Positions 1 to 26,897 of a stretch of DNA of 48,631 bases are shown one piece after another. The translations under genes were made by a program, and so were the position numbers. The first letter of the stretch is position 1. Each line of letters starts with the position of its first letter. Source of the stretch: Bacillota bacterium (GTDB taxonomy: Bacteria > Bacillota > Clostridia > Christensenellales > UBA1242); contig WRAD01000003.1 of the NCBI GenBank assembly GCA_009780375.1, positions 1 to 48,631 on the forward strand. Direction: 5' to 3'. The notes under the pieces were generated by a model that was given only the letters and a program-made list of their open reading frames with translations, was not told the origin of the DNA and did no database searches.

Positions 1-452
1 GGTTTCTTTCTTCTAAAAAAGCCTAAGATAGTTTTTTTACTTCTTTTTGTCATTTGATGATTATCTTGCTCAAGATAATTTTTGTTCCCATATGTTCGAT
101 GATGTTGATACTGCTCTTCTGAATTAAAATAGGATTTGCGTATATTTCCATTTTTATTGAAATCATTTAATTGTGGGTTATCAGGCAACGGTATGTTCTT
201 TTTGTTATTATGCCACTTTGAGTGAGTTAACCCAGCTGATTTTCGCATGTTGCCTTGTTTTTCAAAAAGCCAAGACTTGTGTTTTGTCTTTTTATTAAAC
301 CTTATTTCACTACAGGGGCGTGACTGCGAGTCTTTTTGCAATAATTGTTCTAATCTTCGCTTTGCAAAGTCATGCTCTCCTCGCGTTAAATTGGGATTAT
401 TCATCCTTTCCAAATAATATTTTTGCTTTTCTTTGTCGGAGTGTTTTTTCAT
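1..452 (-). CDS. Hypothetical basic Lys/Asn-rich protein, 3' partial (runs off the window)
   Basis: My manual minus-strand translation from the ATG at 452..450 gives MKKHSDKEKQKYYLERMNNPNLTRGEHDFAKRRLEQLLQKD... and stays open to position 1. The ATG overlaps the TGA of the upstream ORF (ATGA at 449..452). It is absent from the ORF track, presumably because no stop lies in the window. Confidence 0.45.
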   Translation of the reverse strand, partial: MKKHSDKEKQKYYLERMNNPNLTRGEHDFAKRRLEQLLQKDSQSRPCSEIRFNKKTKHKSWLFEKQGNMRKSAGLTHSKWHNNKKNIPLPDNPQLNDFNKNGNIRKSYFNSEEQYQHHRTYGNKNYLEQDNHQMTKRSKKTILGFFRRKK

Positions 453-901
453 TCTTCCTCATCCCATTGATCTTGACCTGGCGGCAATGCCTGGCGTTGC
501 GATGGTGCGTTCAAAATTTCACTAGGTTTATTCGGCGATAATTTTGCTTGCTCTGATGTGTTTTTACGCCCAGCTTCACGTTGCTTCTTGGCTTCCTCAC
601 GCTCAATACGCAGTTTATTCTTGGCTTTTTTGAGTTGTTCATCTACTTCATTCATACGTTCGTAAACTTCCTCAATGCAATAGAATCGGGATATAAACTT
701 GCCTAGAAATGGGTGCGTGAGTTTGAAAAGCGTTCTCTTGCGTGCCTTGGTTAAAAGTATTTTAACCTCTAGCATTTCCGCCTCAATCATTGGTGTTGGC
801 ACAAAACGTTTCCACCCGTCGAACAAATACATGTAATATTTAAACAAATCAATGTAAATTTCATGCAGACGCAGCAGTGTTATTTTAGGTGATTTAGTCA
901 T
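449..901 (-). CDS. Hypothetical protein with basic coiled-coil C-terminal half (element gene)
   Basis: 150-aa ORF with SD AAAGGAG 8 nt upstream of the ATG. It overlaps the stop of the ATPase gene by 8 nt and is ATGA-coupled to the next ORF. No recognisable motif. Confidence 0.6.
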   Translation of the reverse strand: MTKSPKITLLRLHEIYIDLFKYYMYLFDGWKRFVPTPMIEAEMLEVKILLTKARKRTLFKLTHPFLGKFISRFYCIEEVYERMNEVDEQLKKAKNKLRIEREEAKKQREAGRKNTSEQAKLSPNKPSEILNAPSQRQALPPGQDQWDEEE

Positions 902-1796
902 AAAAATACTCCTTTGAGTTTAAGTCTTTTTCGTTATAATAGTCCATATATGCTTGCCTGGTGTGTGCTGGCGGATAGATATGTTTTAATTCATAATCTT
1001 GGTTCAGGTTGCCCTGAATGAAGTCAGGTTCGCAACCGTAACTGTCATAGTTGTTGCGAATATCGAACGGAATAATATAAATTTCTGTTATGTAATTTTT
1101 GGTGGTTTTACCGCTTGCAAGATATTTTTCGTATTCGCTACCGTTTGCAAAATGCCGGTTTGTCCATTTTGTATGGATTGAATATCCAGACTTGCTTTTA
1201 ATAAATTCAACCGTTTGAATTTCTATTACACCAGCCAAAACTCTAATTCGATACGCAATGTCACCATATTCTTGCGTGTCCATGAGGATGCGTAGGCGAT
1301 AATGGCGATACCGTTTAAAGAATTTTTTTTGGCAAGGCAAAAGATTTTTCCAGTTGTGACTGTCTAACGCTTCCCCTGCTTCTTGAAGTCCAAGTATCGA
1401 ACCAGGGGGAATAAATTGCGGATCTATAAGCTGAATTTTCCTGCCAGTTTTTTTACATGTAGCAATATGTGTACCGTCTTTGACTGCAAGCCGTTCAAGT
1501 TCGACATTCCATGCTTTGCGAGGCGAATAGCCCCATTCTTCAGCCACAAGGTGAAAATTTGCGCACACCGAATGTTCATACGGTTTTGTGAGGTTAAACC
1601 CACCTTCAATCTTAAGTTGAACCTGGTCACAAGTTTCTTCGTGTAGGTCATGGTCAAACATCGCCTGTGACAATTTGCCCGTTATGTAGGAAGTTTTACC
1701 CGTACCAGGCAACCCAACAACAATTTTAAAGCAAGGTTTTTCAAAGAGATATAGGTTTTCAACGACTTGACCGTTGTATGTTATTGGCGATGTCAT
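894..1796 (-). CDS. Zot / inovirus pI-like P-loop NTPase (assembly ATPase-like), no TM segment
   Basis: Walker A is VVGLPGTGKTS. A Walker-B-like strand is SILGLQEAGEAL. The segment YRHYRLRILMDTQEYGDIAYRIR resembles the Zot-family HRH-G-D---TQ block. SD is AGGTGGTGAG. The 300-aa protein has no hydrophobic segment. Confidence 0.65.
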   Translation of the reverse strand: MTSPITYNGQVVENLYLFEKPCFKIVVGLPGTGKTSYITGKLSQAMFDHDLHEETCDQVQLKIEGGFNLTKPYEHSVCANFHLVAEEWGYSPRKAWNVELERLAVKDGTHIATCKKTGRKIQLIDPQFIPPGSILGLQEAGEALDSHNWKNLLPCQKKFFKRYRHYRLRILMDTQEYGDIAYRIRVLAGVIEIQTVEFIKSKSGYSIHTKWTNRHFANGSEYEKYLASGKTTKNYITEIYIIPFDIRNNYDSYGCEPDFIQGNLNQDYELKHIYPPAHTRQAYMDYYNEKDLNSKEYFYD

Positions 1797-1804
1797 CTCA
1801 CCAC

Positions 1805-2608
1805 CTACGACACAAAGACGTCAAGGCGAATTGTGAAATTTAGGGCGTATTGGTTGTTGGTAGAAAGATTGCCCGTCATTAAACGAAGTTCCCCATTTTC
1901 TGTAATTCGTACAATACGTGTTGAAAGTTGACCAATGCTTATCATAAACACATAAAATGGTATATGGTATGGTCTGAATGCTTGCGGTAAACTTCCGATA
2001 ACGTTATTTGAAGTAGGGGTTGAGAATATAATAGAAGCGTGCAGGGTGTGACCTATTCTTACAAGTGTGTTTTGTGTAACTTCTCTACCTGTAGGAATTG
2101 AAAACTGCCCAAACTGTGGCGTAACGGTGGTCATATCAGACAACTGTTGTTCAAGATTTTGAATTCTGTCGTTAAGATTTGATATTTGGTTCAGGTGAGA
2201 TTGAATTTGATTATTCAAATTTTGCCTTTGCTGTGTTAAGTCTTGAATTTGTTCCAATAGATTGGTTATGCTTTCAAGATAATCTTCGTCAATTAAGGCA
2301 AGTAATTCGTCTAGCCATATATTTACCCTTTCAATTTCTGCCATGTGTTCAACAATTTCCCTATTCAATTCTTCTATCTGAAACAATAAAGTCCTTGTCT
2401 GTGCCTCTAACTGTTCACGTAGTAATTGACCTTGCCTTAGTCCGTCATTATGTGCGTTTTCAAGGTCGGCACGTGTATACAAATCTGCACCGCCCATGCC
2501 ATGACGAATTGCACCCCAATTCGAAGTCCCCCAAAGTATACCAAACGTCAAGACAGATACAAGCAATACGGCAATTACAATTGTGAATATTTTGTTTTTA
2601 TTTTCCAT
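1805..2608 (-). CDS. N-terminally membrane-anchored coiled-coil protein with C-terminal beta-rich domain
   Basis: TM helix IFTIVIAVLLVSVLTFGILWG, followed by a long Q/N/L heptad-like stretch (IQDLTQQRQNLNNQIQSHLNQISNLNDRIQNLEQQL) and then about 100 aa that are non-helical. SD is AAAGGA. Confidence 0.65.
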   Translation of the reverse strand: MENKNKIFTIVIAVLLVSVLTFGILWGTSNWGAIRHGMGGADLYTRADLENAHNDGLRQGQLLREQLEAQTRTLLFQIEELNREIVEHMAEIERVNIWLDELLALIDEDYLESITNLLEQIQDLTQQRQNLNNQIQSHLNQISNLNDRIQNLEQQLSDMTTVTPQFGQFSIPTGREVTQNTLVRIGHTLHASIIFSTPTSNNVIGSLPQAFRPYHIPFYVFMISIGQLSTRIVRITENGELRLMTGNLSTNNQYALNFTIRLDVFVS

Positions 2609-2620
2609 AATTTTATCCTT

Positions 2621-3142
2621 TTATTTAATCTCGTTTATATGTAAACGGAAAGTATTATCAAGTAAAAAAGCGTGCATTAATGCTTGTTCTTGGAAACCTT
2701 GCACCGTTACCCTTAGTTCTGTTCGCATATTCCAAAACAATATTTGTATATTAAGGTTTGCAGTTATGATATACGAGCCGTCAATATAATAAAAACTAAA
2801 CGGAATAGTTGCACGGACAAACCTTTCGCCGATTTCTGCATCAAATATGACATTGCCATTAAATTCAAGGTAATACTCGAATACGTCACCTGCAAATGAT
2901 GGTACGGGCAATAACGCAAGTTCTTCGTATACGAACAAATCAAAATTATCTGAACATGGTGAAAAGAAAACACCGTTTGTAACATATGAAAAACTTTCTT
3001 GTGAAAAACGATTATTTATGTCTATAGAACCCCTTTGAAAACCTGTGCGTGTTAGTTCGTTAACCGTTAATATCATTGAAAAACCCCCAAAGAAGATAAT
3101 TAAAATACACACAAGCCAGTGCGACATTTTATTAGGAAACAT
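2621..3142 (-). CDS. Membrane-anchored hypothetical protein (pVI-position gene)
   Basis: 173-aa ORF with N-terminal TM HWLVCILIIFFGGFSMILTV. SD is GGGGGTGG. The start overlaps the end of the upstream ORF by 11 nt. Confidence 0.6.
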   Translation of the reverse strand: MFPNKMSHWLVCILIIFFGGFSMILTVNELTRTGFQRGSIDINNRFSQESFSYVTNGVFFSPCSDNFDLFVYEELALLPVPSFAGDVFEYYLEFNGNVIFDAEIGERFVRATIPFSFYYIDGSYIITANLNIQILFWNMRTELRVTVQGFQEQALMHAFLLDNTFRLHINEIK

Positions 3143-4439
3143 GAGCCACCCCCTGTAATTGATTGTGATTGTCTATTAAATTGACTGTACCGCCTATCTG
3201 AATATTTGAAACAATGGTATTGTAAAAAGCAAATTGCAAGATGTTAAAATCTCCACTTCCACGTATTCTAAGCATGTGAATATTCAAATATCGTAAACCG
3301 TTAAAGTCAATTCCACGGATATTATTAAAACCAGCCTGTATGTCTACAATTAGATAAAATCTACGCATATCAAACAATTGTGTTCTTGCACGATTTGAAA
3401 GTGATATCACATAACCGTTATGTAATTGTGAAAAACGCTTATCAAAACTTTGTTCGGTTAGCCTAACGTGTTGACGATATGTCGCAAAATTTGAATTATA
3501 TTCACTGTCGTTTAAATCAAAATCACCACGCCCACCTATCATATTAAATAATGACTGTCTGGCGTTTCTAAAACCGTTGTGATTAATAGAAATGCGTACC
3601 ATGGCATAGGTATCGACCCTGTCAACTGGTTCACGTTGAACAGTACCGCCTCTAATTTCATTAATTTGCAATAAATCAAATAAGGGTAATATGACGTCAA
3701 ATGTGCCTTGTCTTTGGTATGTTCCATCAAGTGTTACTATGTTGTTTAATGAATTAAAAACCACGTGGTTAAAAATTCTGTCCCAATTATTATAATGCCT
3801 GCGGTTAGAGCCAACACGAATATTGATTAATGGATTGGTAAGCAAAGAAGCACTTTCGCCAGTGTTCCAATGATTTAAAACGCTTACTTGATATGGTCTG
3901 CCGTCAATAGGTATTGTCATGACTACATCACGCCTAAAATGAAAATCGTTAACAACTTGGCTTTGATATGAAGTCATAACACCACGTAAGCCGTGTTGAC
4001 TTGCTCTTTGATTTATTGTGTTTTCACTTGGTGACCATGAAGTCCTGCCAACAATAAAATTTGTTCGGCTTGCTCTCCATCTGTTGGTATCAAACATAAA
4101 CCTTGGCTCTGTTCTGTGTAGCCACTGTAAACCATATGACATTTTGTGGTCGGGGTTGTCAACCCTTAACCCTAAAAAATGATTGAATTTTATTTCACTA
4201 AAGAAATACCCATTTCTATTTTGGTTTGTAAAGATATTGACTTCGATAAAGGGTCGGGATTCACGCTCTTCGTTTGTTGCTTCTCGAATATAGTTAGTAT
4301 CGCCAATAATATTTACACCACGCAAATCACGGGTAAAAAATGCAAAAACATACGCCATAATCATAATTGCAATAATACCAAGTGCGGTTAACCCGATCAT
4401 GCCAATCTTGATTACTTTTACTGAAATTGTATCATTCAT
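3132..4439 (-). CDS. Large N-terminally membrane-anchored protein (candidate adsorption or minor-coat protein, pIII position)
   Basis: The ORF track starts at a TTG (4466). The ATG at 4439 follows SD AGGAGG and overlaps the stop of the 56-aa ORF (ATGA). The N-terminus is MNDTISVKVIKIGMIGLTALGIIAIMIMAYVFAFF (TM), followed by about 400 aa with no recognised motif. Confidence 0.6.
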   Translation of the reverse strand: MNDTISVKVIKIGMIGLTALGIIAIMIMAYVFAFFTRDLRGVNIIGDTNYIREATNEERESRPFIEVNIFTNQNRNGYFFSEIKFNHFLGLRVDNPDHKMSYGLQWLHRTEPRFMFDTNRWRASRTNFIVGRTSWSPSENTINQRASQHGLRGVMTSYQSQVVNDFHFRRDVVMTIPIDGRPYQVSVLNHWNTGESASLLTNPLINIRVGSNRRHYNNWDRIFNHVVFNSLNNIVTLDGTYQRQGTFDVILPLFDLLQINEIRGGTVQREPVDRVDTYAMVRISINHNGFRNARQSLFNMIGGRGDFDLNDSEYNSNFATYRQHVRLTEQSFDKRFSQLHNGYVISLSNRARTQLFDMRRFYLIVDIQAGFNNIRGIDFNGLRYLNIHMLRIRGSGDFNILQFAFYNTIVSNIQIGGTVNLIDNHNQLQGVAHVS

Positions 4440-4606
4440 ATTAAACCTCCTAATATTCCACCCCAACCAAACCAGTCAATACCCGTTGCTATCCATCCCA
4501 ATGCAATAGCAAGAAAATTAAATATCCTTGCAACAAGCATCAAAGGAAATGCCCCAAAAGGTATTGTCAAAAATAAGGCTATGCCGATGATTAAACCTAC
4601 TTTCAT
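4436..4606 (-). CDS. 56-aa double-hydrophobic-segment protein (candidate virion coat or small membrane protein), below ORF-track cutoff
   Basis: Manual translation gives MKVGLIIGIALFLTIPFGAFPLMLVARIFNFLAIALGWIATGIDWFGWGGILGGLI. Strong SD GGGGGTGGGG lies 2 nt before the ATG. The stop overlaps the start of the downstream ORF (ATGA at 4436..4439). Confidence 0.55.
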   Translation of the reverse strand: MKVGLIIGIALFLTIPFGAFPLMLVARIFNFLAIALGWIATGIDWFGWGGILGGLI

Positions 4607-4618
4607 AACCCCACCCCC

Positions 4619-5545
4619 TTATAATGCACCAGCAAGGTTTGACGCAAAAAAGAAAACGGTATGACCAGTAATTACACGTGTTGTGATATCAATAGGGTTG
4701 CCGACTTCAGCATGTGAAAGCACCCAACGATGAGAAGAACCACCAGACGGTGGGAATGGTTGGGCGGTGGGGTTTCCGCCACTTATAACGACTTGTTGGG
4801 CAAAGACTGTGTTACCGTTCATAAACACAACAGAAAAACGTTGTACGTTCTGCGAGCCTGTAAGTTTATTTTGCAACTCTGTTATTGTTTGGTTCAGGGT
4901 TGTTATAGTACCATTTGCGGTACTTACTTGACCGCTTATCGAGTTAACTTGGTTTGTTAGGTTTGTGACCTGTGATGTAAGTGAATTAATTTGTTCAAGT
5001 TTAAGTACCACTTGATAGTGGTACAGATTTGCCAGATCACCAAGCACTTCAACCTTTTCTTGCATGTCGTCAATGACTTCTTGCATGTCGGTAACTTGTG
5101 TTTGCAAATCTTTAATAGTACCGGTGTTTGAAATAATCGTTGAGTTAAGCGTTTGTATTTGCTTTGTCAGGTCATATATGACTTCCGCATGGTCGCCGTT
5201 GTTGTCGATGACCTGGGTAAGTGTATATATTATGCCTTCAAGTTGTGTAACCTGTGCCGTCATGTTTTGATTAAGGTCTTGCAGTTGCGATATCTTTGTT
5301 TCAAGCGACCCAACCTGTGACCGATATAATTGTACAAGGTTTTGCAATGCATCAAGGTCTGGATCTGATGGGTTGTAATTGTCATTGTCGCACGGTTCGT
5401 AGCTACAGTGATATTCGTTGTCGGGGGTAGTGTTCTCACTAGAGTCAGAAAACCATTCGAGGTGGAAATGACCGACGAGTAATATTGTGGCCGATATCAC
5501 CGCTATTATCGTCATTGCAATTATGGATTTGAATGTTTGTTTCAT
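4619..5545 (-). CDS. N-terminally membrane-anchored coiled-coil protein with C-terminal Listeria-Bacteroides (InlB B / Flg_new)-like repeat
   Basis: TM helix IIAMTIIAVISATILLVGHF, then about 170 aa of Q/T/L-rich coiled coil. The C-terminus FSVVFMNGNTVFAQQVVISGGNPTAQPFPP...HRWVL...VITGHTVFFFA fits the Flg_new repeat pattern. Confidence 0.65.
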   Translation of the reverse strand: MKQTFKSIIAMTIIAVISATILLVGHFHLEWFSDSSENTTPDNEYHCSYEPCDNDNYNPSDPDLDALQNLVQLYRSQVGSLETKISQLQDLNQNMTAQVTQLEGIIYTLTQVIDNNGDHAEVIYDLTKQIQTLNSTIISNTGTIKDLQTQVTDMQEVIDDMQEKVEVLGDLANLYHYQVVLKLEQINSLTSQVTNLTNQVNSISGQVSTANGTITTLNQTITELQNKLTGSQNVQRFSVVFMNGNTVFAQQVVISGGNPTAQPFPPSGGSSHRWVLSHAEVGNPIDITTRVITGHTVFFFASNLAGAL

Positions 5546-5607
5546 TGTTTTTCCTTTATTTAGGAAATGCTCACTTCTCCCGGTGTGAGCTACCGTTAAT
5601 TAATAGA

Positions 5608-5636
5608 TTGATTTTTCTTGTCGGTTCATGTATAAT
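5608..5636 (+). promoter_or_regulatory. Sigma-A-type promoter for the plus-strand nuclease-like gene
   Basis: TTGATT (5608..5613), a 17-nt spacer, then TATAAT (5631..5636). It lies about 38 nt upstream of the ATG, which carries SD GGGGAGGA. Confidence 0.55.
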
Positions 5637-5674
5637 GACTAGGACAAGTTATATTAAATTGTGGGGAGGAATAA

Positions 5675-6223
5675 ATGCCAGCACCAATGTGTAAAAAATG
5701 CAAACAGAATAAAGCGACATATCTTTACTGGTATAACTCTTACTCGGACCTATGTACTGATTGTTATTACGACAAACAATCTGATTCCAAAGATGATGGT
5801 GAAGAAGTTACTGAAGTGGAGCAGGATTCCACAAATAACTATGCAAAACCTAAAAACGAAAGAGATAAATGGGGATTGCCCGAAATTCGTGCTCAATCAG
5901 GACATAGAGTAAGGAGTCGCGGTGAATGTTTAATTGCCAACTGGCTTTACGACAATCGAATACTTTTTGAGTATGAGCGTATCGTATATTTAAATAGTGA
6001 CACCCAGCGTTATCTCATTTCTGACTTTTATTTACCCGATGCTAAACTTTACATAGAGTATTGGGGATACAAAGACAAAGGGAGTTATAATTTAAGGAGA
6101 GATGAGAAAGATACAATTTACAAAGAAAAGGAACTTAATCTGTTAAATGTTGAAGACCATCACATTAACTCTTTGGATGATTTTTTACGCAAAAACTTAA
6201 TCAAGCACTTCAAACATCTTTGA
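5675..6223 (+). CDS. Zinc-ribbon plus PD-(D/E)XK-like nuclease domain protein (only plus-strand gene in the element)
   Basis: The N-terminus carries CKKCKQ...CTDC (four Cys). The C-terminal half, RSRGECLIANWLYDNRILFEYE...ISDFYLPDAKLYIEYWGY, resembles the restriction-endonuclease-like module seen at the N-termini of helicase IV / plasmid Rep-type helicases (E ... D ... E-x-W/K arrangement). Confidence 0.55.
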   Translation: MPAPMCKKCKQNKATYLYWYNSYSDLCTDCYYDKQSDSKDDGEEVTEVEQDSTNNYAKPKNERDKWGLPEIRAQSGHRVRSRGECLIANWLYDNRILFEYERIVYLNSDTQRYLISDFYLPDAKLYIEYWGYKDKGSYNLRRDEKDTIYKEKELNLLNVEDHHINSLDDFLRKNLIKHFKHL

Positions 6224-6693
6224 ATTCGCTTTTTGGTGTGGCTTTTTACGGCTCAGCTGGCTTTGTGGTATTGTTTCTGTTATTTGGCATATGATTTATT
6301 TCTCCTTTTAATCGTCCAAAGTCTCCCTTGTCTGCAGGTTTTACGTCACGATGGACGTCCTATTTTTGTTTTAAACTACTTTTTCTTGAGTGCTATCAGT
6401 ACATGACATCGTAGATAATATTTTTTTCGTATAATCTCATTTCCTTTTAATCGCCTATTTTTAACGTCTGGCTATTCGACGTGTGGGGGCGGTGTTGGAA
6501 TTGCACCAACTGCAAAACGTGTTTTCATTTGCATACAAATCACACTCTAATCTGCAAACTTGTTACCGCCCGTATTCGGACTTGTTTTTGGCCTTGCTAA
6601 GTCCATAACGCAAGGGGTAAGTCAGGAAAATACTTAAGGAGGTTAAAAACCCTATTACCATTGGGTGGCAGTTTTTACACGTGCCACAGGTGT
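6224..6693. other. About 470-bp non-coding region inside the element (candidate origin, packaging or regulatory region)
   Basis: No ORF of 60 aa or more on either strand, and no convincing SD-led small ORF. Short hairpins occur at 6343..6358 (ACGTC/GACGT), 6493..6510 (GTTGG/CCAAC) and 6665..6687 (GTGGCA/TGCCAC). A TTTT(T)AC(G) motif recurs. Confidence 0.3.
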
Positions 6694-6846
6694 CTATACA
6701 TGTTTTAGGTCGGTGAACTTTACGATTTTAAAACCGTATCTTTTCATCTTTTCGACAAGGTTATTGGCTTGCCTTTCTGTAACCGCATAAAGCGAATGCA
6801 GGGTATTTTGCCTGTCTTTATAAGTGATTTCATAACGGAACTTCAC
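6694..6846 (-). CDS. Possible 50-aa protein (GTG start), below ORF-track cutoff
   Basis: Manual translation gives (M)KFRYEITYKDRQNTLHSLYAVTERQANNLVEKMKRYGFKIVKFTDLKHV. AAGGCGG lies upstream of the GTG. The ORF overlaps the 3' end of the preceding ORF by 17 nt, and its composition looks protein-like. Confidence 0.35.
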   Translation of the reverse strand: MKFRYEITYKDRQNTLHSLYAVTERQANNLVEKMKRYGFKIVKFTDLKHV

Positions 6847-7087
6847 AAGTCACCGCCTTAAAATCGTTGATGTTATAAACCTTGATGTGCATGAACTTGC
6901 CTACGATTTGCAAGTTGCCAATTTTGGCTATAAAGTCCGCACGTTTATCTTTTAACATCTCTTTAAAATCTTTGATAGTCATTTCAATACCATGCTTTTT
7001 TAAAAACTTTGCATTGATTTCACTTTTGATAAAATGATTTCGGGTATACCGTGGGTCATCATAAATACAGCGGATGTGATTGAACAT
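6830..7087 (-). CDS. Hypothetical protein (element early-region gene)
   Basis: The ORF track starts at a GTG (7099). The ATG at 7087 is preceded by GAGGTG, which overlaps the stop of the upstream ORF. No recognised motif. Confidence 0.55.
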   Translation of the reverse strand: MFNHIRCIYDDPRYTRNHFIKSEINAKFLKKHGIEMTIKDFKEMLKDKRADFIAKIGNLQIVGKFMHIKVYNINDFKAVTCEVPL

Positions 7088-7095
7088 AACGCACC

Positions 7096-7716
7096 TCACT
7101 TGTTTTTAAGTTTGGCACGCTCCATGGCAAGCCCTGCAAATACAAGAAATTCCATATCTTCATAGCCAAACGCATGTGTAAAAGTCTGACCTTTACCCAA
7201 GTTAAACTCTATTCCGTAAAACTTATGACCTGGCTTGCTCCTGCTGTCAAGCCTGCCTACGACAAACGGAATATCTTTGTTTGCCCCAAGAAATTCTAAA
7301 ATGTCCCTTGCCACTTGATTTCTAAAAGGCACATAGTCCTTTTTAGCCCCCTCGTATTCCGCACGCACGGCGATATGTTCTTGCTTAAACCCAGGTACAA
7401 CCCTTGTTTTTCCTGTGTACACTTTGTCTTTGAATTTTGATGACAGCACAAAGATTTCAATAAGTTTTCTTGATGTCTTTTCTTCTTCGTCAAGTTTAAT
7501 TTCTACAAACTCTTCAAGGTCTGCGTACTGGTCATTATCAAATTGTGCGACTTCTTCAGGTGTGTTTACTTCACTCTTGGGTACAGTATTTGTCTGTTCG
7601 ACTGTCGAACTTGTCACCGTTTCTTCAGGCGTGTTTTCTGTTGTGACTTGTGCGATGGTTTCTTGCACTGCGGTTTCTACTTCATTTTTTACTTGTTTTT
7701 TTACTTGATTGCTCAT
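7096..7716 (-). CDS. Hypothetical protein with acidic, T/E/V-rich disordered N-terminus and a globular C-terminal domain of about 130 aa
   Basis: 206-aa ORF with SD AAGGAGA. No recognised motif. Confidence 0.6.
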   Translation of the reverse strand: MSNQVKKQVKNEVETAVQETIAQVTTENTPEETVTSSTVEQTNTVPKSEVNTPEEVAQFDNDQYADLEEFVEIKLDEEEKTSRKLIEIFVLSSKFKDKVYTGKTRVVPGFKQEHIAVRAEYEGAKKDYVPFRNQVARDILEFLGANKDIPFVVGRLDSRSKPGHKFYGIEFNLGKGQTFTHAFGYEDMEFLVFAGLAMERAKLKNK

Positions 7717-7761
7717 GGCTAATCTCCTTTAACTTTTTTAATTTCTAACCCATCCCAAACC

Positions 7762-8001
7762 CTAGTAATTCGATATAACTTCAATACCTTTGTCTACTAG
7801 TTCGCACTTGCAAGAAACAATCTTGTTTCGCAAATTTGCAAGCAAACTAACAATCTCATTTAAACGAGCATTTCTACAACAAAACAAATCTAACATTTCA
7901 TCAATGCCATCAATGTACTCGTTCAATTTCTCAACGGCTTCAATCGTCCTACGCAACGCAACATCCGCCGCACGCTCGCCTGTTTTCCTAACTCTGTTCA
8001 T
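7762..8001 (-). CDS. Hypothetical small helical protein
   Basis: 79-aa ORF with strong SD AAGGAGG 5 nt upstream of the ATG. Confidence 0.6.
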   Translation of the reverse strand: MNRVRKTGERAADVALRRTIEAVEKLNEYIDGIDEMLDLFCCRNARLNEIVSLLANLRNKIVSCKCELVDKGIEVISNY

Positions 8002-8030
8002 GGTTACCTCCTTTTTTTGATGTTTGTTGC

Positions 8031-8231
8031 TTAGTTGTTTAGTAAGTTCCTAAGTCGTTGTTGAGTGTGAAGTAGTTCGTCGAGTTCTTCAAGATCTGCC
8101 AATCTTTTTCTTAGCCTTGAATTTTCTTTCTGAAGTTCCACTTTCTCAAGCCTCATAGCCCATACTTCTTTCGTGAATTGATCAAGCAACTTTGATACTG
8201 GACATTCACGCTTTTTTTGGTAAGTCGCCAT
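8031..8231 (-). CDS. Small coiled-coil (leucine-zipper-like) protein, first gene of the element block
   Basis: The ATG at 8231 is preceded by GGGGGAAG. The sequence is MATYQKKRECPVSKLLDQFTKEVWAMRLEKVELQKENSRLRKRLADLEELDELL. The ORF-track start at 8252 is upstream of the SD. Confidence 0.5.
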   Translation of the reverse strand: MATYQKKRECPVSKLLDQFTKEVWAMRLEKVELQKENSRLRKRLADLEELDELLHTQQRLRNLLNN

Positions 8232-8263
8232 TCTTCCCCCTTTTAACCTCAATTTGTAAATAC

Positions 8264-8292
8264 ATTTTAAGGTATAAGCGGTTGCAATTCAA
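8264..8292 (-). promoter_or_regulatory. Sigma-A-type promoter candidate driving the element's first operon
   Basis: The minus strand reads TTGAAT (8292..8287), a 17-nt spacer, then TAAAAT (8269..8264). It lies between the hslV terminator and the ORF at 8231. Confidence 0.4.
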
Positions 8293-8298
8293 TATGTA

Positions 8299-8329
8299 CA
8301 AAGAAAAACGCTACCTGTTAGATAGCGTT
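8299..8329 (-). terminator. Rho-independent terminator after hslV
   Basis: On the minus strand a 7-bp stem AACGCTA/TAGCGTT (8329..8323 and 8313..8307) with a 9-nt loop is followed by TTTCTTTG. Confidence 0.6.
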
Positions 8330-8350
8330 ATTTAAGATGTTTCAAAGGCT

Positions 8351-8893
8351 TTAAACCTCTTCGACAGTTATGTTTCCATTTGTAAACACGCAGAGTTCGC
8401 CCGCTATGCGAAGTGCCTCTTTGGTTATTTCAAGTGCAGAAAGTTTGGTATTTGCGGCCAAGGCCTTTGCGGCGGCAAAAGCATAGTTTCCGCCCGAACC
8501 AATCGCACAAATGCCTTTTTCTGGCTCGATTACGTTACCATCTCCAGAAATTATAAGAAGTTTTTCTTTGTCCGCGACAATCATCATGGCCTCAAGATTA
8601 CGAAGATATCTGTCACCGCGCCATGCCTTTGCAAGTTCCACCGCACCACGCATAAGATTGCCACTGAATTTCTGTAACATTTCCTCGAAACGATCACTTA
8701 GTGTGAATGCATCGGCAACGGACCCTGCGAAACCTACAATTACCTTGTTATCATACATTCTGCGAACTTTTACCGCGTTACCTTTAAGAATAACACTTTG
8801 TCCCATGGTTACTTGGCCATCACCCGCGATTACCGTTTTCCCGTCACGTTTTACCGCCACAATAGTTGTTCCATCCAGATGCATATTTGACAT
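8351..8893 (-). CDS. hslV: ATP-dependent protease subunit HslV (ClpQ/CodW)
   Basis: [45 protein letters not shown] matches the HslV N-terminal Thr and GDGQVT region, with a short B. subtilis CodW-type propeptide. The 180-aa length is typical. Confidence 0.85.
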
Positions 8894-8961
8894 TTTGATT
8901 CTCCTTTTTGATTATAACACAGGGATTATCCAGTAATATAGATAATTTCTAATATCAGTAA

Positions 8962-11019
8962 TTATGAACACTCGCGATTATTGCATTTTTCTTTTTTATC
9001 TTTCGGATTAATTACAATAGCAGATCCACATCTTTCACAAAGTTTACCTGTTGGTTGATCCCATGCAACAAAGTCACAGTTTGGATATGATGAACAACCA
9101 AAGAAAATTTTTCCTTTTTTGCTTTTGCGTTTATAGATATCGCCTTTATGTGTATCTGCACATTTTGGACATTTACAAATTGGTTTGTCAAATGGCTTTG
9201 CATTACGGCATTCAGGAAAACCTGGACATGACAAAAATTTTCCAAATCTGCCTATACGCACAATCATCATCTGTCCACATTTTTCGCATGCTGTGTCAGA
9301 AATTTCGGTGGCTATTGTAATATTATCCTCACCTTCCATTGCCGTCTCGATATCTTTTTCAAATGGCTTATAAAATTCATCTATAACAGTTATCCATTCT
9401 CTTCCCTCATATGCAATTTCGTCAAGCTTTTCCTCAAGTCCTGCGGTGAATTCTATATTCATTATATTAATAAAATACTTTTCCAAAAGATCACAGATTA
9501 CAAAACCAAGCTCGGTTGGTTTAAGAACTTTGCCATCTTTTTCAATGTAATAGCGAGCAATTATATTTTGTATAATTGGATTGTATGTTGCAGGACGACC
9601 AATCCCAGCCTCTTCCATTGCTTTGACAAGTGTTGCTTCGGTATATCGTGCAGGTGGCTTTGTAAACTTTTGAGTGTATTCAAGTTTAATGAACTTTGGC
9701 GTGTCACCTTCAACAAGTTCAGGTAAACGCGATTGCTCTTCATCTGCTTCGTCTTCGTCTTTTACGTATAATACTCTCCATCCGTCAAATATTGGTGTAC
9801 GTCCACTTACACGAAATCCATAGCCATTTGCATCTATATCAACAGAAGTTGAATTATATGTTGCTTCGGTCATTTGAGACGCCAAGAAACGATTATATAT
9901 AAGCCTGTATAGTTTGGCTTGGTCGGCCTCTAGGAATTTTGAAACACGCTCGGGGGTAAGTTCAATATTGGTTGGTCTGATTGCTTCGTGAGCATCTTGT
10001 GCAGATTTTTTGCTTTTGTAAAAATTAAATTTTTCAGGGGCATATTCTTTACCAAAATTTGCAAGTATCCATTCTTTTGCCTGGGCCTGGGCATCTGGTG
10101 ATACGCGGACACTGTCTGTACGAATATAAGTTACAAGGGCGGTTTTTCCGTCTTCCCCAATATTAACACCTTCATAGAGCTGCTGTGCCGCACGTCCTGT
10201 TCGAGCAAGGCTCATACCTGCTTTGTTAAGGGCATCTTGTTGAAGAGAACTTGTTGTATATGGTGCAGGTGCATTAGAACGAGTAACGCTTTTCTTAACG
10301 GCGATGACCTTATAAGTTGCACCGTCTATTGCTTTTACCACAACGTCAACATCTTCTTTGTTTACAAGTTGAAGTTTTTTACCATCAAGCCCTGTTCTTA
10401 GAGATGCACGAAAACCGATGCTATCCTTTTCCAGATGTGAAAAGAAATCCCAGTATTCTTCTGGTTTGAAATTAACAATTTCGCGTTCACGTATACAAAC
10501 AAGTTTAAGTGTCACAGATTGAACACGTCCAGCGGATAATTTTGTCTTTTTGACCTTTTTACAGACAACAGGAGAAAGTTTATATCCAACAAGCCTGTCA
10601 AGAATCCTTCTTGCCTGTTGAGCATTAACCAAATCCATATCAATTGCACGTGGTTCAAGCAGAGCGTTTTGAATTGCTTTTTTTGTAATCTCGTTAAAAA
10701 CAATGCGTGTTGCATTTTGTGGTTTGATTCCTAGAATATGGGCAAGATGCCATCCAATTGCTTCTCCTTCTCGATCCGGGTCGGTTGCAATTAAAACTTC
10801 ACTTGCTTTTGCCGCTTTGTCTTTAAGTTTTTTTGCTTGCTCTTCTTTATCTTTCATGACTTTGTACTTTGGAGTATAGTTATTTTCAACATCAACAGAA
10901 AGAACCCTTTTTTGAAGGTCTCTAAGGTGCCCACCAGTTGCCATGACTTCGTAACCTGGTCCGAGATATTTTTTAATTGTATCTTTTTTACCAATACCCT
11001 CGATAATAACAAGTTTCAT
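8962..11019 (-). CDS. topA: DNA topoisomerase I
   Basis: 685 aa. Toprim N-terminus (MKLVIIEG..., DPDREGEAI), type IA core (RVQSVTLKL, YIRTDS) and C-terminal CxxC zinc ribbons. Confidence 0.95.
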   Translation of the reverse strand: MKLVIIEGIGKKDTIKKYLGPGYEVMATGGHLRDLQKRVLSVDVENNYTPKYKVMKDKEEQAKKLKDKAAKASEVLIATDPDREGEAIGWHLAHILGIKPQNATRIVFNEITKKAIQNALLEPRAIDMDLVNAQQARRILDRLVGYKLSPVVCKKVKKTKLSAGRVQSVTLKLVCIREREIVNFKPEEYWDFFSHLEKDSIGFRASLRTGLDGKKLQLVNKEDVDVVVKAIDGATYKVIAVKKSVTRSNAPAPYTTSSLQQDALNKAGMSLARTGRAAQQLYEGVNIGEDGKTALVTYIRTDSVRVSPDAQAQAKEWILANFGKEYAPEKFNFYKSKKSAQDAHEAIRPTNIELTPERVSKFLEADQAKLYRLIYNRFLASQMTEATYNSTSVDIDANGYGFRVSGRTPIFDGWRVLYVKDEDEADEEQSRLPELVEGDTPKFIKLEYTQKFTKPPARYTEATLVKAMEEAGIGRPATYNPIIQNIIARYYIEKDGKVLKPTELGFVICDLLEKYFINIMNIEFTAGLEEKLDEIAYEGREWITVIDEFYKPFEKDIETAMEGEDNITIATEISDTACEKCGQMMIVRIGRFGKFLSCPGFPECRNAKPFDKPICKCPKCADTHKGDIYKRKSKKGKIFFGCSSYPNCDFVAWDQPTGKLCERCGSAIVINPKDKKEKCNNRECS

Positions 11020-11068
11020 ACGTTAATCCCTTTAATATTAATTATTTGTTTTGTTGCGGGAGTTATGA

Positions 11069-12157
11069 CTAGGTCTTTTTGTAATAATTGCCTGCCAGTT
11101 TTTTAATTAAACCACTCATCTCCATATTTGTCAACAAAGTTGAGAGTTTGTGTACAGGCAATCCAATTTCTTCAATAAGCCCGTCAAAATGTACCTCTTT
11201 ATTGCCTATTGTGTCAAGCACTTGTTTTTCATCAAATGAGAGTTGTATAAAAGCGTTTTCCCGTTGCGGTGATTTTTCATATACACCAAATGCATCAAGC
11301 ACATCTTGGGCATTTGTTGCAATTGCCCCGCCTTCTTTTATAAGTTGGTTCGTTCCCCTTGACACGTAACTTGTAATTGGTCCAGGCACCGCATATACAT
11401 CAATGCCTACGTCCTGGGCACATTTCATTGTTATCATTGTACCGCTTTTCAAATCTGCCTCTACAATTACAAGTGCGTTTGATAATGCTGCAACAATTCG
11501 GTTACGTTGAGGGAAAGTAAATTTTGCACCTGAGAAATTAGGCAAATATTCTGATAACACAAGACCGTATTTTGTAATCTTTTGCTGGAGCCCTGTATTT
11601 GACGCCGGATAAAAAGTATTTATACCATTACCCAAGACCGCAATTGTATGTAATAGAATTTTTGAATCTGGAGACTTGTCTTGTTTTAAATCAAAAGATT
11701 TAATTGCACCTAGATGAGCATGTGTATCTATTCCATCGGCAAGCCCTGAAATAACCACAATGCCCTTATCTGCAAATTTCTTTGCAAAATCTTTTGCAAC
11801 CTCTTCGCCGTAATGCGTACATTTGCGTGTGCCTATTATTGCCACAGCAGATTTGGTTAAAAGTTCCAAATTGCCTCGCGCATATAACACAAGTGGTGGA
11901 TTTTCCAGATTACGCAAACGATATGGATAGGTCTTTGATTCGCGAGTAATTACATGAATTTCTTGGTCATAAAGGTTTTTAATAAACGATTTTAATAAAT
12001 CTTTATCACACATTGACAAGATTTTTTCAAAACGTTTCGCATTTTGTTCGTCTTTATAAGTCCCAAGCATTTGCTTGAAGAGTTCCAAGTTTTCAAATTC
12101 CCTAGATATTGCAATCAATGCAAGTTCAGCAATTGTAAAGTTTTCATATGTGTTCAT
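11069..12157 (-). CDS. dprA: DNA-processing protein DprA/Smf
   Basis: GLADGIDTHAH, FPQRNRIVAALS and VIVEADLKSGTMIT motifs typical of DprA. The dprA-topA order is conserved in Firmicutes. Confidence 0.9.
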   Translation of the reverse strand: MNTYENFTIAELALIAISREFENLELFKQMLGTYKDEQNAKRFEKILSMCDKDLLKSFIKNLYDQEIHVITRESKTYPYRLRNLENPPLVLYARGNLELLTKSAVAIIGTRKCTHYGEEVAKDFAKKFADKGIVVISGLADGIDTHAHLGAIKSFDLKQDKSPDSKILLHTIAVLGNGINTFYPASNTGLQQKITKYGLVLSEYLPNFSGAKFTFPQRNRIVAALSNALVIVEADLKSGTMITMKCAQDVGIDVYAVPGPITSYVSRGTNQLIKEGGAIATNAQDVLDAFGVYEKSPQRENAFIQLSFDEKQVLDTIGNKEVHFDGLIEEIGLPVHKLSTLLTNMEMSGLIKKLAGNYYKKT

Positions 12158-21968: not shown

Positions 21969-24803
21969 TTATGTTGAGTTCTTATTTTGCTTGGCACCTT
22001 TTCTCTTTGATGCCAGTGTAACTATAAAGGCTATGAACATAAATGTTGCAAGAATTCCTACCACTATTAATGCAATTCCTATTCCGTTTAAAAAGTTATT
22101 GTCTGGTTCTTGTCCTTGATATGGCGGTTCTATTGTGCCTATATTAATATCGGTGCGTATTCCATTTATTACAAGGTATCCATCCTCATCAACCGTTATT
22201 GTAAGTGGTGGCGGATTAACATTATGTTCGGTTATGATTCCGTTTACAACGACATAGCCATCGCTGTTTACCGTTATTATTGGATCTTGTTGGATGACAT
22301 TGTGTTCGGTTACTACATCGTTTACTACCACATACCCTTCATTGTTTATTGTTATTGTTGGTACTCGTTGTGAAACATTGTATTCGGTTGGTGTGCCGTT
22401 TACTACGACATATCCGTCGCTGTTTATCGTTATTACAGGTTCTGATTGATTAACATTATGTTCGGTTGGCACGCCGTTGACCACCACATAGCCATCGGCA
22501 TTAACGGTGATAACCGGGCCGAGTGGGTCTGGGTTTATGTTATGTTCGGTTATGATTCCGTTTACTACGACATAGCCATCACTGTTTACCGTTACAACTG
22601 GATCTTGTTGGATGACGTTATGTTCGGTTACTACATCGTTTACTACCACATACCCTTCACCGTTTATTGTTATTGTTGGTGTGGGTGGGGTGATGTTGAT
22701 GTATTCGCCGTCTGTTCCTATTGCTCGTTCGCCATTAATGCGAATGTAACCTTGATCATCAATAACGATTGTCATACCTGGTGGTTGTGCAATTGTGAAT
22801 GGCATGCGTTCACTTGGTGCAGAAATTGGCCAGCCTCCTATTTGGTCAAGAACCTCTATCGATACATAATAATCGCCTGGTGGTAACCCTAGTTGATCTA
22901 GATTTCGTGGTGGGTATTGCGCATCGACAAGCAAACGATTACCGGTGCGTGTACATAGAATTGTTAGACGATACCCACCTGGATTCGTGCCTGGGGTCCA
23001 ATCAAGTATATTTCCATCGTCATCTTGGTCGGGGAAAACGATGGTTGGTGGTGGTTCTGGATTAATTGCCGGAATACCAGGGTTGTAATATACCGCAAAC
23101 AATTCTCGGTTTTCGGTTATGTTTACAAAAGGACCATTTCCGATGTGGTCCGGGTGATAGTTTTGGAATGGATGATATTCAACAATACGACCATTTGCAT
23201 TTGCTTGGCTTGTTGCCCAGCCAATAAATTGCGAGTTACCAAAACTTGCTTCTGTGAATAAAGGCGAAGTACCTACCACAAATTCTTCCCCTTCATGGAT
23301 TTGAAATGTTTGTGATGGTCGGTTTGTTATCCCGTGCATAGGTGCGTTTCTTTGCAAGATTAATCGGTGTGGGGCCTCGGTACGATTAGCTTCGTCAAAT
23401 ATTGGACGTTGCAACACAGGGAATCCATCGGGCGAACCTTGCATTGTCCAAACATTTGCAAAGTTCCAACCCATTTGTGCGGTATAGTTAGATTGCGTTG
23501 TAAACCAGGTGTGGTTATGTGTGCCAGCAACAGTATTGTTAACAGTAACCGCGTGAGTTGTTGGTGTACCTGTGGCGGCCGTTAAAGTTTGTGGTGTAAT
23601 TACACGATTTCCAGATGAAGAAGTGGTTGGTGGACTTTCCCAGCTTACCATTGTTGAAATGATTGATGATCGTCTTCTTGGTGAATTTGATGACGAAATA
23701 AGTGGGGAAACAATTGCATTATTATTTGCTGTAATAGATGCTTGATTTGAACCGAATACTGCACCAATTCCGGCCGCCGATGCAAGTCGAAAAGTGGCAG
23801 AATTCACAGCTGTATTTTCAATTGAAGATACAATAAGATTTCTATTTACTTGTAATGACGTTATTCCGCTTGGATTTGTTACATTCCAATTATGCATGAT
23901 TCCAACTATTCCACCAACTGAGACATCACCAGATGTAGAGGTACCACTTACAAATACACGCCCACGGACACTTGAATCTTGGACAGTAACATTAGACAGT
24001 CGCTGCATAGTTCCAATAATACCTCCGACGTATAATGCCTCACTTGATGATTGAGCCGCAAGTTCAATTATGCTGTTGACTTGTACCCTTGAAATTACTA
24101 TAACTGCCGATCCATTTACAAGATTAACAATTCCGCCCGTACCTATGGTCGCACGCCGTATTGTGCCAGATATAGATGAATCGGAAATCGTGTTATTGAT
24201 GCCTGAAACATTACTGATAAGCCCATGTGCCGAGGTTCCATTAAAATGAACGTTTGAAATATTTCCTGTTGTCATTGTACCTGCTAACATGGCATGATTT
24301 GAATTGGCACCTGTTATACGAAGGTTGCGCACCGTTCCGTTGTTTACAAGTTCAAAAAATGCCCTGTTTGATACAAGCCCTAGTATTTCATGATTTTGCC
24401 CATCTAATGTTCCATTGAACTGGGAAATTGTAATCCATTCACGAGCAGACAAATTTATATCGTTGCCAAGTTTAATTACTTGTCCAGAAAAATTTCGCAC
24501 ATTTGCCGCACGTGTCGTGTCATTTGCAATATTGGCAAGCCCTGCAAGTTCACGAGCATTAGAAATTAGATAAGGATGTTGAGCGGTTCCACGATTTGGA
24601 AACAAATCAAACCAATCTGTACAAAAATGTCCAGCGTCTTGCCATGTGCCTGTTGGTCCATCTGTTGCAGCCCTAGACGAACCTGAGACCGATATCAAAA
24701 CACCACCTGCCGCAATACAGAGCATCAATACAAAGGCCATTACAAAATAGCCGAGTTTACGTGCCTCCCAATTTGTTACTCTTGAATAGCGATTTACACT
24801 CAT
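21969..24803 (-). CDS. Large cell-surface protein: signal/TM, GLUG-type beta-helix region, Flg_new-like repeat, tandem 26-aa repeats, C-terminal TM anchor
   Basis: N-terminal hydrophobic segment. The stretch ISNARELAGLANI...VIKLGNDINLSAREWITISQFNGTLDGQNHEILGL is typical of GLUG-motif beta-helix adhesins. FIGWATS...ELFAVY is an InlB-B-type repeat. The repeats are ITVNxDGYVVVNGxxTEHNV. The C-terminus is GIALIVVGILATFMFIAFIVTLASKRKG. Confidence 0.8.
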   Translation of the reverse strand: MSVNRYSRVTNWEARKLGYFVMAFVLMLCIAAGGVLISVSGSSRAATDGPTGTWQDAGHFCTDWFDLFPNRGTAQHPYLISNARELAGLANIANDTTRAANVRNFSGQVIKLGNDINLSAREWITISQFNGTLDGQNHEILGLVSNRAFFELVNNGTVRNLRITGANSNHAMLAGTMTTGNISNVHFNGTSAHGLISNVSGINNTISDSSISGTIRRATIGTGGIVNLVNGSAVIVISRVQVNSIIELAAQSSSEALYVGGIIGTMQRLSNVTVQDSSVRGRVFVSGTSTSGDVSVGGIVGIMHNWNVTNPSGITSLQVNRNLIVSSIENTAVNSATFRLASAAGIGAVFGSNQASITANNNAIVSPLISSSNSPRRRSSIISTMVSWESPPTTSSSGNRVITPQTLTAATGTPTTHAVTVNNTVAGTHNHTWFTTQSNYTAQMGWNFANVWTMQGSPDGFPVLQRPIFDEANRTEAPHRLILQRNAPMHGITNRPSQTFQIHEGEEFVVGTSPLFTEASFGNSQFIGWATSQANANGRIVEYHPFQNYHPDHIGNGPFVNITENRELFAVYYNPGIPAINPEPPPTIVFPDQDDDGNILDWTPGTNPGGYRLTILCTRTGNRLLVDAQYPPRNLDQLGLPPGDYYVSIEVLDQIGGWPISAPSERMPFTIAQPPGMTIVIDDQGYIRINGERAIGTDGEYINITPPTPTITINGEGYVVVNDVVTEHNVIQQDPVVTVNSDGYVVVNGIITEHNINPDPLGPVITVNADGYVVVNGVPTEHNVNQSEPVITINSDGYVVVNGTPTEYNVSQRVPTITINNEGYVVVNDVVTEHNVIQQDPIITVNSDGYVVVNGIITEHNVNPPPLTITVDEDGYLVINGIRTDINIGTIEPPYQGQEPDNNFLNGIGIALIVVGILATFMFIAFIVTLASKRKGAKQNKNST
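22137..22775 (-). repeat. In-frame tandem coding repeats (8 units of about 21-34 aa; units 1-2 nearly identical to units 5-6)
   Basis: Unit boundaries derived from the translation are 22137..22199, 22200..22277, 22278..22355, 22356..22433, 22434..22511, 22512..22595, 22596..22673, plus a degenerate unit at 22674..22775. DNA around 22281 and around 22601 is near-identical. Confidence 0.85.
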
Positions 24804-26871: not shown

Positions 26872-26897
26872 TGACTTGTTTCGCCTCCTATTGTTCA

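Follow-up and report, generated by a model that had tools for sequence, protein, structure and literature searches.

The stretch of DNA analysed here (the window) comprises the 48,631 nucleotides of contig WRAD01000003.1 of a Bacillota bacterium (assembly GCA_009780375.1), and its left end is occupied by a mobile element with an ATPase of the Zot/pI family, a rolling-circle replication initiator (Rep) and a tyrosine integrase. The element measures 13,143 bp; its right-hand 8.4 kb lie in the window (1-8408) and 4,792 nt extend to the left of position 1. This left part was read from the source-contig locus L001 (72.7-kb ENA metagenome contig), which overlaps the window exactly (window position = 11797 - L001 position) and supplies 4,962 nt left of window position 1. 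A direct-repeat search revealed the boundaries. attL (8352-8408) is formed by the final 57 nt of hslV including the stop codon, and attR (L001 16532-16588, outside the window) is found 13,143 bp away, just past the integrase gene, with 91% identity to attL. The two copies differ at 5 of 57 positions and share identical blocks of 19 and 26 nt. Reading of both sequences showed that attR still codes for the HslV C-terminal peptide with one conservative A-to-S change, the remaining differences being synonymous. Hence, hslV stays intact because the element supplies a replacement 3' end, which is the usual picture of a phage inserting at the 3' end of a gene. A preliminary description of the window had set the right limit at 8300; the true end is at 8351/8408, with attL located within the hslV 3' end.

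The hslV genes of relatives show the same conserved 3' end. To the right of the element hslV (8351-8893) is followed by topA and dprA, and according to TopA the nearest genome is a termite-gut Bacillota metagenome-assembled genome (MAG) with 74% identity. We inspected this MAG and nine further related loci. In none of these 10 loci was the element present beside hslV, and host genes were found there instead. Since hslV adjoins host genes and not this block in the relatives inspected, the element is mobile, in line with the integrated state proposed by the preliminary description. Moreover, both integrated junctions, the attR junction included, are present in Logan contigs of one termite-gut run, which represent an independent assembly. 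The window also encodes SpoIVA (25399-26898), which marks the host as an endospore former. The host is an uncultured member of the Clostridia from termite gut.

The gene at 894-1796 on the minus strand encodes a 300-aa morphogenesis ATPase of the Zot/pI family without a transmembrane (TM) segment. On its own, the protein matched PHROG 197 ('Zot-like') with E=0.023. A word-indexed search returned two relatives besides the protein itself, and an exhaustive search with their alignment led to 390 representative clusters (50% identity), nearly all of 260-290 aa. The profile of 87 relatives matched the crystal structure of the Zot N-terminal domain (PDB 2R2A, E=1.1e-15) with both Walker regions aligned, and 67 of the 87 match Pfam PF05707 at E<=0.01 (best 3.1e-12). 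Similar results were obtained for the structure model. The AlphaFold model calculated with the family alignment reached a predicted local distance difference test (pLDDT) value of 91.2, compared to 30 with a three-sequence alignment, and its top PDB match in Foldseek was again 2r2a_A (E=3.5e-8, TM-score 0.63 on the target). Among the top matches of the model in the viral database BFVD is 'Zonular occludens toxin [Inoviridae sp.]'. The protein, which the preliminary description had called Zot/pI-like, is accordingly a divergent member of this family at the level of both family profile and fold. The label 'Zot' refers here to the assembly ATPase family and is not evidence of a toxin. A search of IMG/VR with a 13-sequence alignment yielded one contig (L007), and the same search with the three-sequence alignment gave no confirmed relative.

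The Walker A motif GLPGTGKTS is located at residues 28-36 (G33-K34-T35). G33, K34 and E139 are invariant in the 87 relatives, R185 is kept in 86 of them, T35, S146 and Q175 are nearly invariant and H165 is found in 77; the ATPase of the element retains all of these residues. The position of the Walker B Asp is taken by Gln (residue 138). Asp is present here in 39 of the 87 relatives and Thr, Ser, Gln or Met in the others, and the Glu that follows is invariant in the family. As G33, K34, T35, E139, S146, Q175, R185 and H165 are all kept, the ATPase is probably enzymatically active. The preliminary description had remarked that the ATPase has no TM segment and regarded this as unusual. The first part is correct, but the trait is common, as only 4 of 152 family proteins possess a hydrophobic segment. 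Orf8 of Propionibacterium phage B5 and the C-termini of gut-virome inovirus Zot proteins also lack it. A TM segment is therefore not a defining feature of the Gram-positive-type members.

The ATPase gene is preceded by genes for five membrane proteins on the minus strand. TM segments were assigned with a Kyte-Doolittle hydropathy scan, and coiled coils were judged by heptad periodicity against 200 shuffles and two control proteins. The first gene codes for a 308-aa protein (4619-5545) that is anchored by an N-terminal TM segment (residues 7-25), continues into a coiled coil and ends in a small C-terminal domain; it is a candidate surface fibre. It is followed by a wholly hydrophobic protein of 56 aa (4436-4606), a candidate virion or membrane subunit, by a 435-aa N-anchored protein (3132-4439, TM 17-35), which is the largest structural candidate and a possible analogue of an adsorption protein, and by a 168-aa N-anchored protein (2621-3127, or 173 aa if translation starts at 3142; TM 4-22). 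The last one is a 267-aa N-anchored coiled-coil protein (1805-2608, TM 7-25) with a beta-rich C-terminal domain. An ORF (open reading frame) scan thus recovered all five genes named in the preliminary description, that is the ATPase gene and the four genes between 1805 and 4606, at the positions and on the strand given there. The two coiled-coil proteins it had pointed out were confirmed by hydropathy and by heptad scores of 0.89 for the 308-aa protein (residues 63-234) and 0.76 for the 267-aa protein (residues 111-165), compared to about 0.38 in shuffled sequences. None of the 200 shuffles reached the observed value in either case, and the two control proteins gave no coiled coil. For the 308-aa protein coiled-coil families were the sole family matches; a resemblance of its C-terminus to a Listeria-Bacteroides repeat found no Pfam support and was dropped.

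The 56-aa protein contains one or two hydrophobic stretches and ends with GWGGILGGLI. K2 and R27 are its only basic residues and none is located near the C-terminus, as noted before in the preliminary description. It is the only small hydrophobic member of the membrane module; the other four proteins are N-anchored, and two of these carry coiled-coil stalks. When the element is drawn as a circle, this conserved five-gene module stands between Rep and the ATPase.

The genes following the ATPase gene encode proteins of 150, 153 and 90 aa, and then come a hairpin, the Rep_1 gene, a methyltransferase gene, gene fragments, the integrase gene and attR. The preliminary description had recognised neither Rep, integrase nor a single-stranded DNA (ssDNA)-binding protein in the leftmost 8.3 kb and had considered, as one of two alternatives, replication and integration genes further left. 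Rep, integrase and att repeat are indeed located 0.6-4.8 kb left of the window, and no ssDNA-binding protein was recognised with Pfam, PHROG or NCBIfam. The Rep_1 initiator (501 aa, L001 12388-13893) matches PF01446 with 67.9 bits against a cutoff of 33.2. Its HUH motif HPHIH is intact, and the pC194-type ExxKY motif is present as EVFKY, both read directly from the sequence. Searches of PDB sequences with Rep and with the nuclease described below returned nothing. The methyltransferase (218 aa, L001 14130-14786) belongs to PHROG 757 (E=1e-49). A 53-aa ArdC-N fragment and a 92-aa fragment of a second methyltransferase lie between its gene and that of the integrase, a Xer-like tyrosine recombinase of 320 aa (L001 15417-16379; PF00589, E=8e-27, and Xer-type models of NCBIfam) that is encoded on the minus strand of L001, opposite to its neighbours.

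About 50 nt upstream of rep we found a GC-rich hairpin (L001 12294-12331) with a perfect stem of 17 bp and a loop of 4 nt, which is directly followed by CTTGATAC. Together they span L001 12294-12339, about 0.5 kb left of window position 1. From its context, this hairpin with the CTTG/ATAC site is a candidate double-strand origin. The heptamer CTTGATA is not conserved upstream of rep in the related locus L005, and TCTTGATA had no match. In the scan the hairpin also reads as a minus-strand terminator-like site.

Four homologues of the 435-aa protein were detected (46-63% identity), and each one that could be traced stands in the same gene order. Two of them come from L096 and L098, which are long contigs belonging to the same metagenome; a copy of the L098 element was also found on Logan contig L099. 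L096 and L098 share a run of a small hydrophobic protein, a 408-420-aa protein, a 165-171-aa protein, a 326-378-aa protein and a family ATPase, which matches the family profile with E=1e-61 to 1e-86. The small hydrophobic protein (68-71 aa) is 55-74% identical to the first 47 residues of the 56-aa protein and likewise has no basic tail. The 168-aa protein is 59-70% identical in L096 and L098, and the N-terminal part of the 326-378-aa protein is 38-47% identical to the 267-aa coiled-coil protein. L096 has its counterpart of the 435-aa protein in two pieces of 37 and 408 aa. The Rep of both sister elements is of the PF02407 type. L096 encodes a 440-aa tyrosine recombinase and L098 an rve DDE enzyme; L098 is flanked by a perfect 17-nt repeat, 10,324 bp apart, and no clear att repeat was found for L096. 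Similarly, L005 combines an 84% identical ATPase with a different Rep_1 protein. In L091 the ATPase gene and a small ORF are followed by a Rep gene (1463-2458) with PF01719 (Rep_OBD) and a helicase-like P-loop (GATRLGKT ... LLLDEF), in which HYHYLV was read as an HUH-like motif. A rolling-circle Rep was thus found in all four related elements with this region captured (L005, L091, L096 and L098). Across these sequences the structural module and the ATPase are retained, and Rep and integrase are swapped between sister elements. Roux et al. (PMC6813254) describe the same for inoviruses, in which the morphogenesis module is stable and the modules for replication and integration can be exchanged. 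Two further observations concern these loci. Host genes including the spoIIIA operon lie within about 2 kb after the L091 Rep gene, and TTGAAAGTGTACTTTCAAAA, a 20-nt palindrome, occurs four times in and around the L096 element (7420, 15085, 15528 and 17187), near the Rep and methyltransferase genes, and may be an operator or binding site.

The remaining genes of the element in the window are small. Our ORF scan of positions 1-12000 yielded 13 plausible genes in the minus-strand block 1-8231, 12 of them complete and one running off the left edge, and not at least 15 as given in the preliminary description. The tight packing reported there was confirmed. Neighbouring genes overlap by up to 17 nt or stand up to 45 nt apart; the overlaps at 4436-4439 and 449-452 are of the ATGA type, and most starts are preceded by AGGAGG-, GGAGG- or GAGG-like motifs. 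The block is interrupted by one plus-strand gene (5675-6223) and by a stretch of 470 nt without a convincing gene (6224-6693). The latter has no Rfam match, as does the element as a whole, and may be a regulatory or origin part. A minus-strand ORF of 32 aa lies in this stretch (6563-6661); its product begins with hydrophobic residues and ends in basic ones (SKAKNKSEYGR), and the ORF lacks a ribosome-binding site. The first gene inside attL codes for a small, charged and partly coiled protein of 66 aa (8031-8231, minus strand), a candidate regulator without any family match above noise. It is followed on the same strand by a 79-aa protein of unassigned function (7762-8001), a 206-aa protein with an acidic, Thr-rich N-terminal half (7096-7716), an 85-aa protein found in the ORF scan (6830-7087) and a possible 50-aa ORF with a GTG start (6694-6846) that is absent from the calls of the source record and weakly matches PHROG 38550 (E=0.0027). 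By its place on the circular map, the 206-aa protein is a positional candidate for the ssDNA-binding gene. It found only itself among 5.8 billion clusters and had no match in Pfam, PHROG, PADLOC or NCBIfam.

Downstream of the ATPase gene and overlapping it by 8 nt, a translationally coupled gene encodes the 150-aa protein (449-901, minus strand). ORFs in this position overlap or abut the ATPase stop codon in eight elements (the one described here and those of L003, L007 and L088-L092) and share a loose N-terminal motif (~L-DE-L...F..Y...L.T.DFV) followed by basic stretches. The 150-aa protein may be an adaptor or conserved partner of the ATPase. The 153-aa protein (1-452, minus strand, its left end beyond the window) is very basic, with 36 K+R compared to 16 D+E, and has a 90-aa paralogue at L001 11928-12200, so that the element carries two of them. 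Small, very basic proteins with a shared N-terminal motif (~EEK.KYY.GR...LT.GQR.YA) occur once or twice per element, for example at 1508-1921 in L005, 13240-13940 in L096 and 8426-8665 in L098. A comparable basic protein in L003 has 34 K+R in 90 aa. These proteins could bind DNA.

The sole plus-strand gene of the element in the window (5675-6223) encodes a 182-aa protein with a Zn-ribbon and a PD-(D/E)XK nuclease domain, which matches PADLOC PDC-S69 (E=7.7e-30), HEAT_CxxC_PD-DEXK (E=3.3e-11) and PHROG 9019 'Holliday junction resolvase' (E=2.4e-7). Judging from these matches, the nuclease would be cargo of the kind known from candidate anti-phage defence systems. In the same slot the sister element L098 carries a different reverse-strand Zn-ribbon gene (8701-9153), which suggests that this slot is a cargo position. 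Outside the element, a CxxC zinc-ribbon ORF (L001 16656-16758) lies about 70 nt past attR on the host side, and the source contig ends within it; this ORF weakly matches DUF7685, as does the nuclease of the element. hslU was not seen beside hslV on the source contig, and most relatives have hslU within 2 kb. Two further host ORFs on the minus strand, at 21969-24803 (944 aa) and 30793-32502 (569 aa), had no Pfam match at E<=1e-5.

Among isolated phages of Gram-positive hosts, Propionibacterium phage B5 (Bifilivirus B5, Paulinoviridae) resembles the element in several respects. Its ATPase Orf8 (308 aa) is followed directly by the Rep Orf9, and small TM proteins, a large protein and a mid-size TM protein are encoded upstream in this order. 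Orf8 weakly matches the ATPase family profile (17.7 bits). However, B5 measures 5.8 kb and has no annotated integrase, whereas the element is integrated and has 13.1 kb. B5 moreover encodes three small TM proteins including one of 57 aa with a basic C-terminus (KWIFRKAKSLVS), while the element has only one and this has no basic tail. The large protein of B5 carries an N-terminal signal and a C-terminal anchor, in contrast to the solely N-anchored large proteins of the element. In two 5.5-kb gut-virome inoviruses the Zot protein matches the family profile (65 bits) and Rep follows directly; these Zot proteins have no C-terminal TM segment, and one of the two shows an N-terminal hydrophobic stretch. 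B5 and the gut inoviruses encode three to eight short TM proteins, compared to the one 56-aa candidate found here.

Within the phage collection, the ATPase of bajarodino virus 12 (PQ006185.1) comes closest to that of the element, with 29% identity across 81% of the query (E=7e-15). The genome of this virus, a circle of 9.8 kb from rodent faeces, was deposited as complete and filed under Inoviridae. Its ATPase has 266 aa, a length class in which no ATPase of the family has a C-terminal TM segment. The virus also encodes an integrase, and its ATPase gene is preceded by genes for two TM-anchored proteins (344 and 541 aa) and followed by a partner ORF. On the other hand, similarity was detectable for none of its other proteins, its annotation includes no Rep and the 541-aa protein differs by a mid-chain TM segment and a very basic tail.

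In the Ff phages (M13, fd and f1) replication genes, a small hydrophobic protein, a large membrane protein, a mid-size membrane protein and the ATPase follow each other on the circle. Our element shows the same circular order, that is Rep, cargo and integrase, attP, small early genes, the small hydrophobic protein, the large, mid-size and coiled-coil membrane proteins and the ATPase. This order parallels both Ff and B5; the preliminary description had likened it to the coat, pIII, pVI and pI order of filamentous phages. The fold and motifs of the ATPase are likewise shared with Ff and with Zot of CTXphi. Differences are the TM segment and periplasmic domain of Ff pI/Zot, which contacts the pIV secretin. 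The element has neither TM segment nor secretin, and a secretin is not expected since there is no outer membrane. Furthermore, Ff uses a gpII-type initiator instead of Rep_1, and CTXphi relies on the XerCD of its host, whereas the element codes for its own Xer-like recombinase.

Integrated inoviruses of Clostridia have been documented before. Enterocloster prophages carry direct repeats, a pI/Zot homologue and many short orphan genes, and it was shown experimentally that they secrete filaments of 500-700 nm (PMC10061712). Prior to that work, filamentous phages had been isolated from two Gram-positive hosts (PMC10061712), and thousands of inoviruses had been predicted by Roux et al. (PMC6813254). 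Compared by description only, these inoviruses resemble the element in their varying replication and integration modules and differ in size, most of them having 6.5-8.5 kb. What is new here is thus a well-bounded termite-gut member with a lineage-specific structural module.

Taken together, we are confident that a mobile element with a Zot-type ATPase and a Rep sits at hslV, and we consider it likely that this is a temperate prophage of the inovirus type (filamentous phages, Tubulavirales) which uses its own tyrosine recombinase to integrate at the hslV 3' end. The balance is also somewhat in favour of filamentous ssDNA particles as its product. A role as a cellular apparatus was rejected, as the block is bounded by att sites, is absent from the relatives inspected and consists of orphan genes together with Rep and integrase. 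In the life cycle that we propose, the integrase would excise the element, and rolling-circle synthesis, probably starting from the site formed by the hairpin and CTTG/ATAC, would generate ssDNA circles. The five structural proteins would insert into the cytoplasmic membrane and accumulate there, and the soluble ATPase would be recruited to it, with the coupled downstream protein or the N-anchored proteins as possible recruiters. Driven by the ATPase, a particle of DNA and protein would then be assembled and extruded across the Gram-positive envelope without lysing the cell, with the coiled-coil proteins possibly forming distal fibres or adsorption structures. Since the 56-aa protein lacks a basic tail, the charge of the DNA is probably neutralised by the very basic proteins that are encoded separately beside the ATPase. 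The reverse-strand nuclease and the methyltransferase would be cargo serving defence or anti-restriction.

Several results weigh against an inovirus-type prophage. The ATPase alone has no Pfam match at E<=0.1, and the assignment to the family required its relatives. A canonical coat protein is missing. On the coding strand a ribosome-binding site precedes only one small hydrophobic ORF, that of the 56-aa protein, and neither this protein nor its homologues in L096 and L098 have a basic C-terminus. The catalogue of Roux et al. asks for several single-TM proteins of 30-90 aa (PMC6813254), of which the element has at most one. The large proteins are N-anchored and lack the combination of signal peptide and C-terminal anchor known from Ff pIII, B5 Orf6 and the gut inoviruses. 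For the missing ssDNA-binding protein, the 206-aa candidate is an orphan. The sister elements show these peculiarities too: one small hydrophobic protein lacking a basic tail, coiled-coil proteins with an N-terminal anchor and no ssDNA-binding gene that could be recognised. CTTGATA is not enriched (4 occurrences compared to 2.2 expected), and the origin call rests on context. With 13.1 kb the element also exceeds the usual inovirus size of 4-12 kb (PMC10061712). Finally, element and host flanks have equal sequencing depth in two metagenome samples, and a comparison of the window part of the element with the contigs of these samples revealed no circular-junction or empty-site contig, although this says little about excision because minor forms are lost in assembly.

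The last two findings would fit a cryptic, decaying prophage of the same lineage that neither excises nor forms particles and is merely carried by the host, as integrated junction contigs alone were found. The ArdC-N and methyltransferase fragments near the integrase, the mismatches between the att copies, the zinc-ribbon ORF right after attR with the contig break there and the split 435-aa homologue in L096 could be explained in the same way. Nevertheless, we regard decay as unlikely. Rep, ATPase, the five membrane proteins and integrase all have their full length, the catalytic motifs are intact and the genes are tightly coupled in translation, and the att mismatches fall outside the identical 19- and 26-nt blocks, as expected for a phage-borne and a host copy. 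Moreover, the presence of several diverged sister elements in one metagenome speaks for a lineage that is alive, and rare excised forms are invisible in contig data. The Rep_1 family is best known from small Gram-positive plasmids (pC194/pUB110 family). The presence of PF01446 and a cargo of methyltransferase, ArdC fragment and nuclease, as typical of mobile islands, could point to a non-viral element with genes for surface proteins, either an integrative rolling-circle plasmid or a mobilisable island. This we hold to be very improbable, since the ATPase had no match in 72,556 plasmid records and its family is present in viral records, the Pfam and PHROG matches of the element proteins include no relaxase, coupling protein or VirB4-like gene, and membrane module and ATPase stay together in elements with different types of Rep.

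The peculiar structural proteins could also belong to a virus or transfer agent that is not filamentous, with enveloped, pleomorphic or vesicle-like particles, N-anchored coiled-coil proteins as spikes, basic proteins condensing the DNA and a borrowed Zot-like ATPase and Rep. The four N-anchored proteins, of which two have a long coiled-coil stalk and a globular part at the C-terminus, do resemble type II spikes; the single small hydrophobic protein has no DNA-binding tail, and very basic small proteins stand beside the ATPase, such as the counterpart in L003. The runner-up fold matches of the ATPase model are packaging ATPases of membrane-containing viruses, the second-best being STIV2 B204 (E=9e-5). 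However, the pattern of Tectiviridae and STIV-like viruses, an A32/B204-type packaging ATPase together with a double-jelly-roll capsid protein, is not that of the element, and no ORF had a capsid-like family match in Pfam or PHROG. A preprint proposes that budding elements other than inoviruses also make use of pI-like ATPases. IME1 of Dehalococcoides is described there as integrated or episomal, with a pI-like ATPase and small TM proteins, and is proposed to be non-lytic (doi 10.64898/2026.09.15.751708). Likened to our element by this description alone, IME1 is larger (21-28 kb) and confined to Chloroflexota, the DNA it packages is proposed to be double-stranded, and the abstract mentions no rolling-circle Rep (doi 10.64898/2026.09.15.751708). 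The best sequence, profile and fold matches of the ATPase are all Zot/pI, the gene order parallels B5, a family member lies in a circular record that was deposited as complete and filed under Inoviridae, and a rolling-circle Rep is present in the element and the four related loci named above. We therefore give little credence to a non-filamentous agent, and it appears just as doubtful that the lineage formed by the element, L096 and L098 makes a particle unlike that of Ff, enveloped or otherwise of new architecture. If this were true, it would represent a new virion architecture for an ssDNA element of Gram-positive bacteria.

Read as an inovirus-type prophage, the locus adds to a group that is barely studied, the filamentous phages of Gram-positive bacteria, a complete and bounded example with the hslV 3' end as its defined integration site. 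In practical terms the locus is of modest value, as it allows a better annotation of such prophages and offers a candidate system for extrusion in Clostridia. The sister elements define a conserved module of ATPase and membrane proteins in which replication and integration genes are swapped. Moreover, the soluble Zot-type ATPase without TM segment turns out to be the family-wide state (about 390 clusters at 50% identity), which raises the question how such an ATPase is coupled to the membrane and how the particle passes through a thick cell wall without a secretin.

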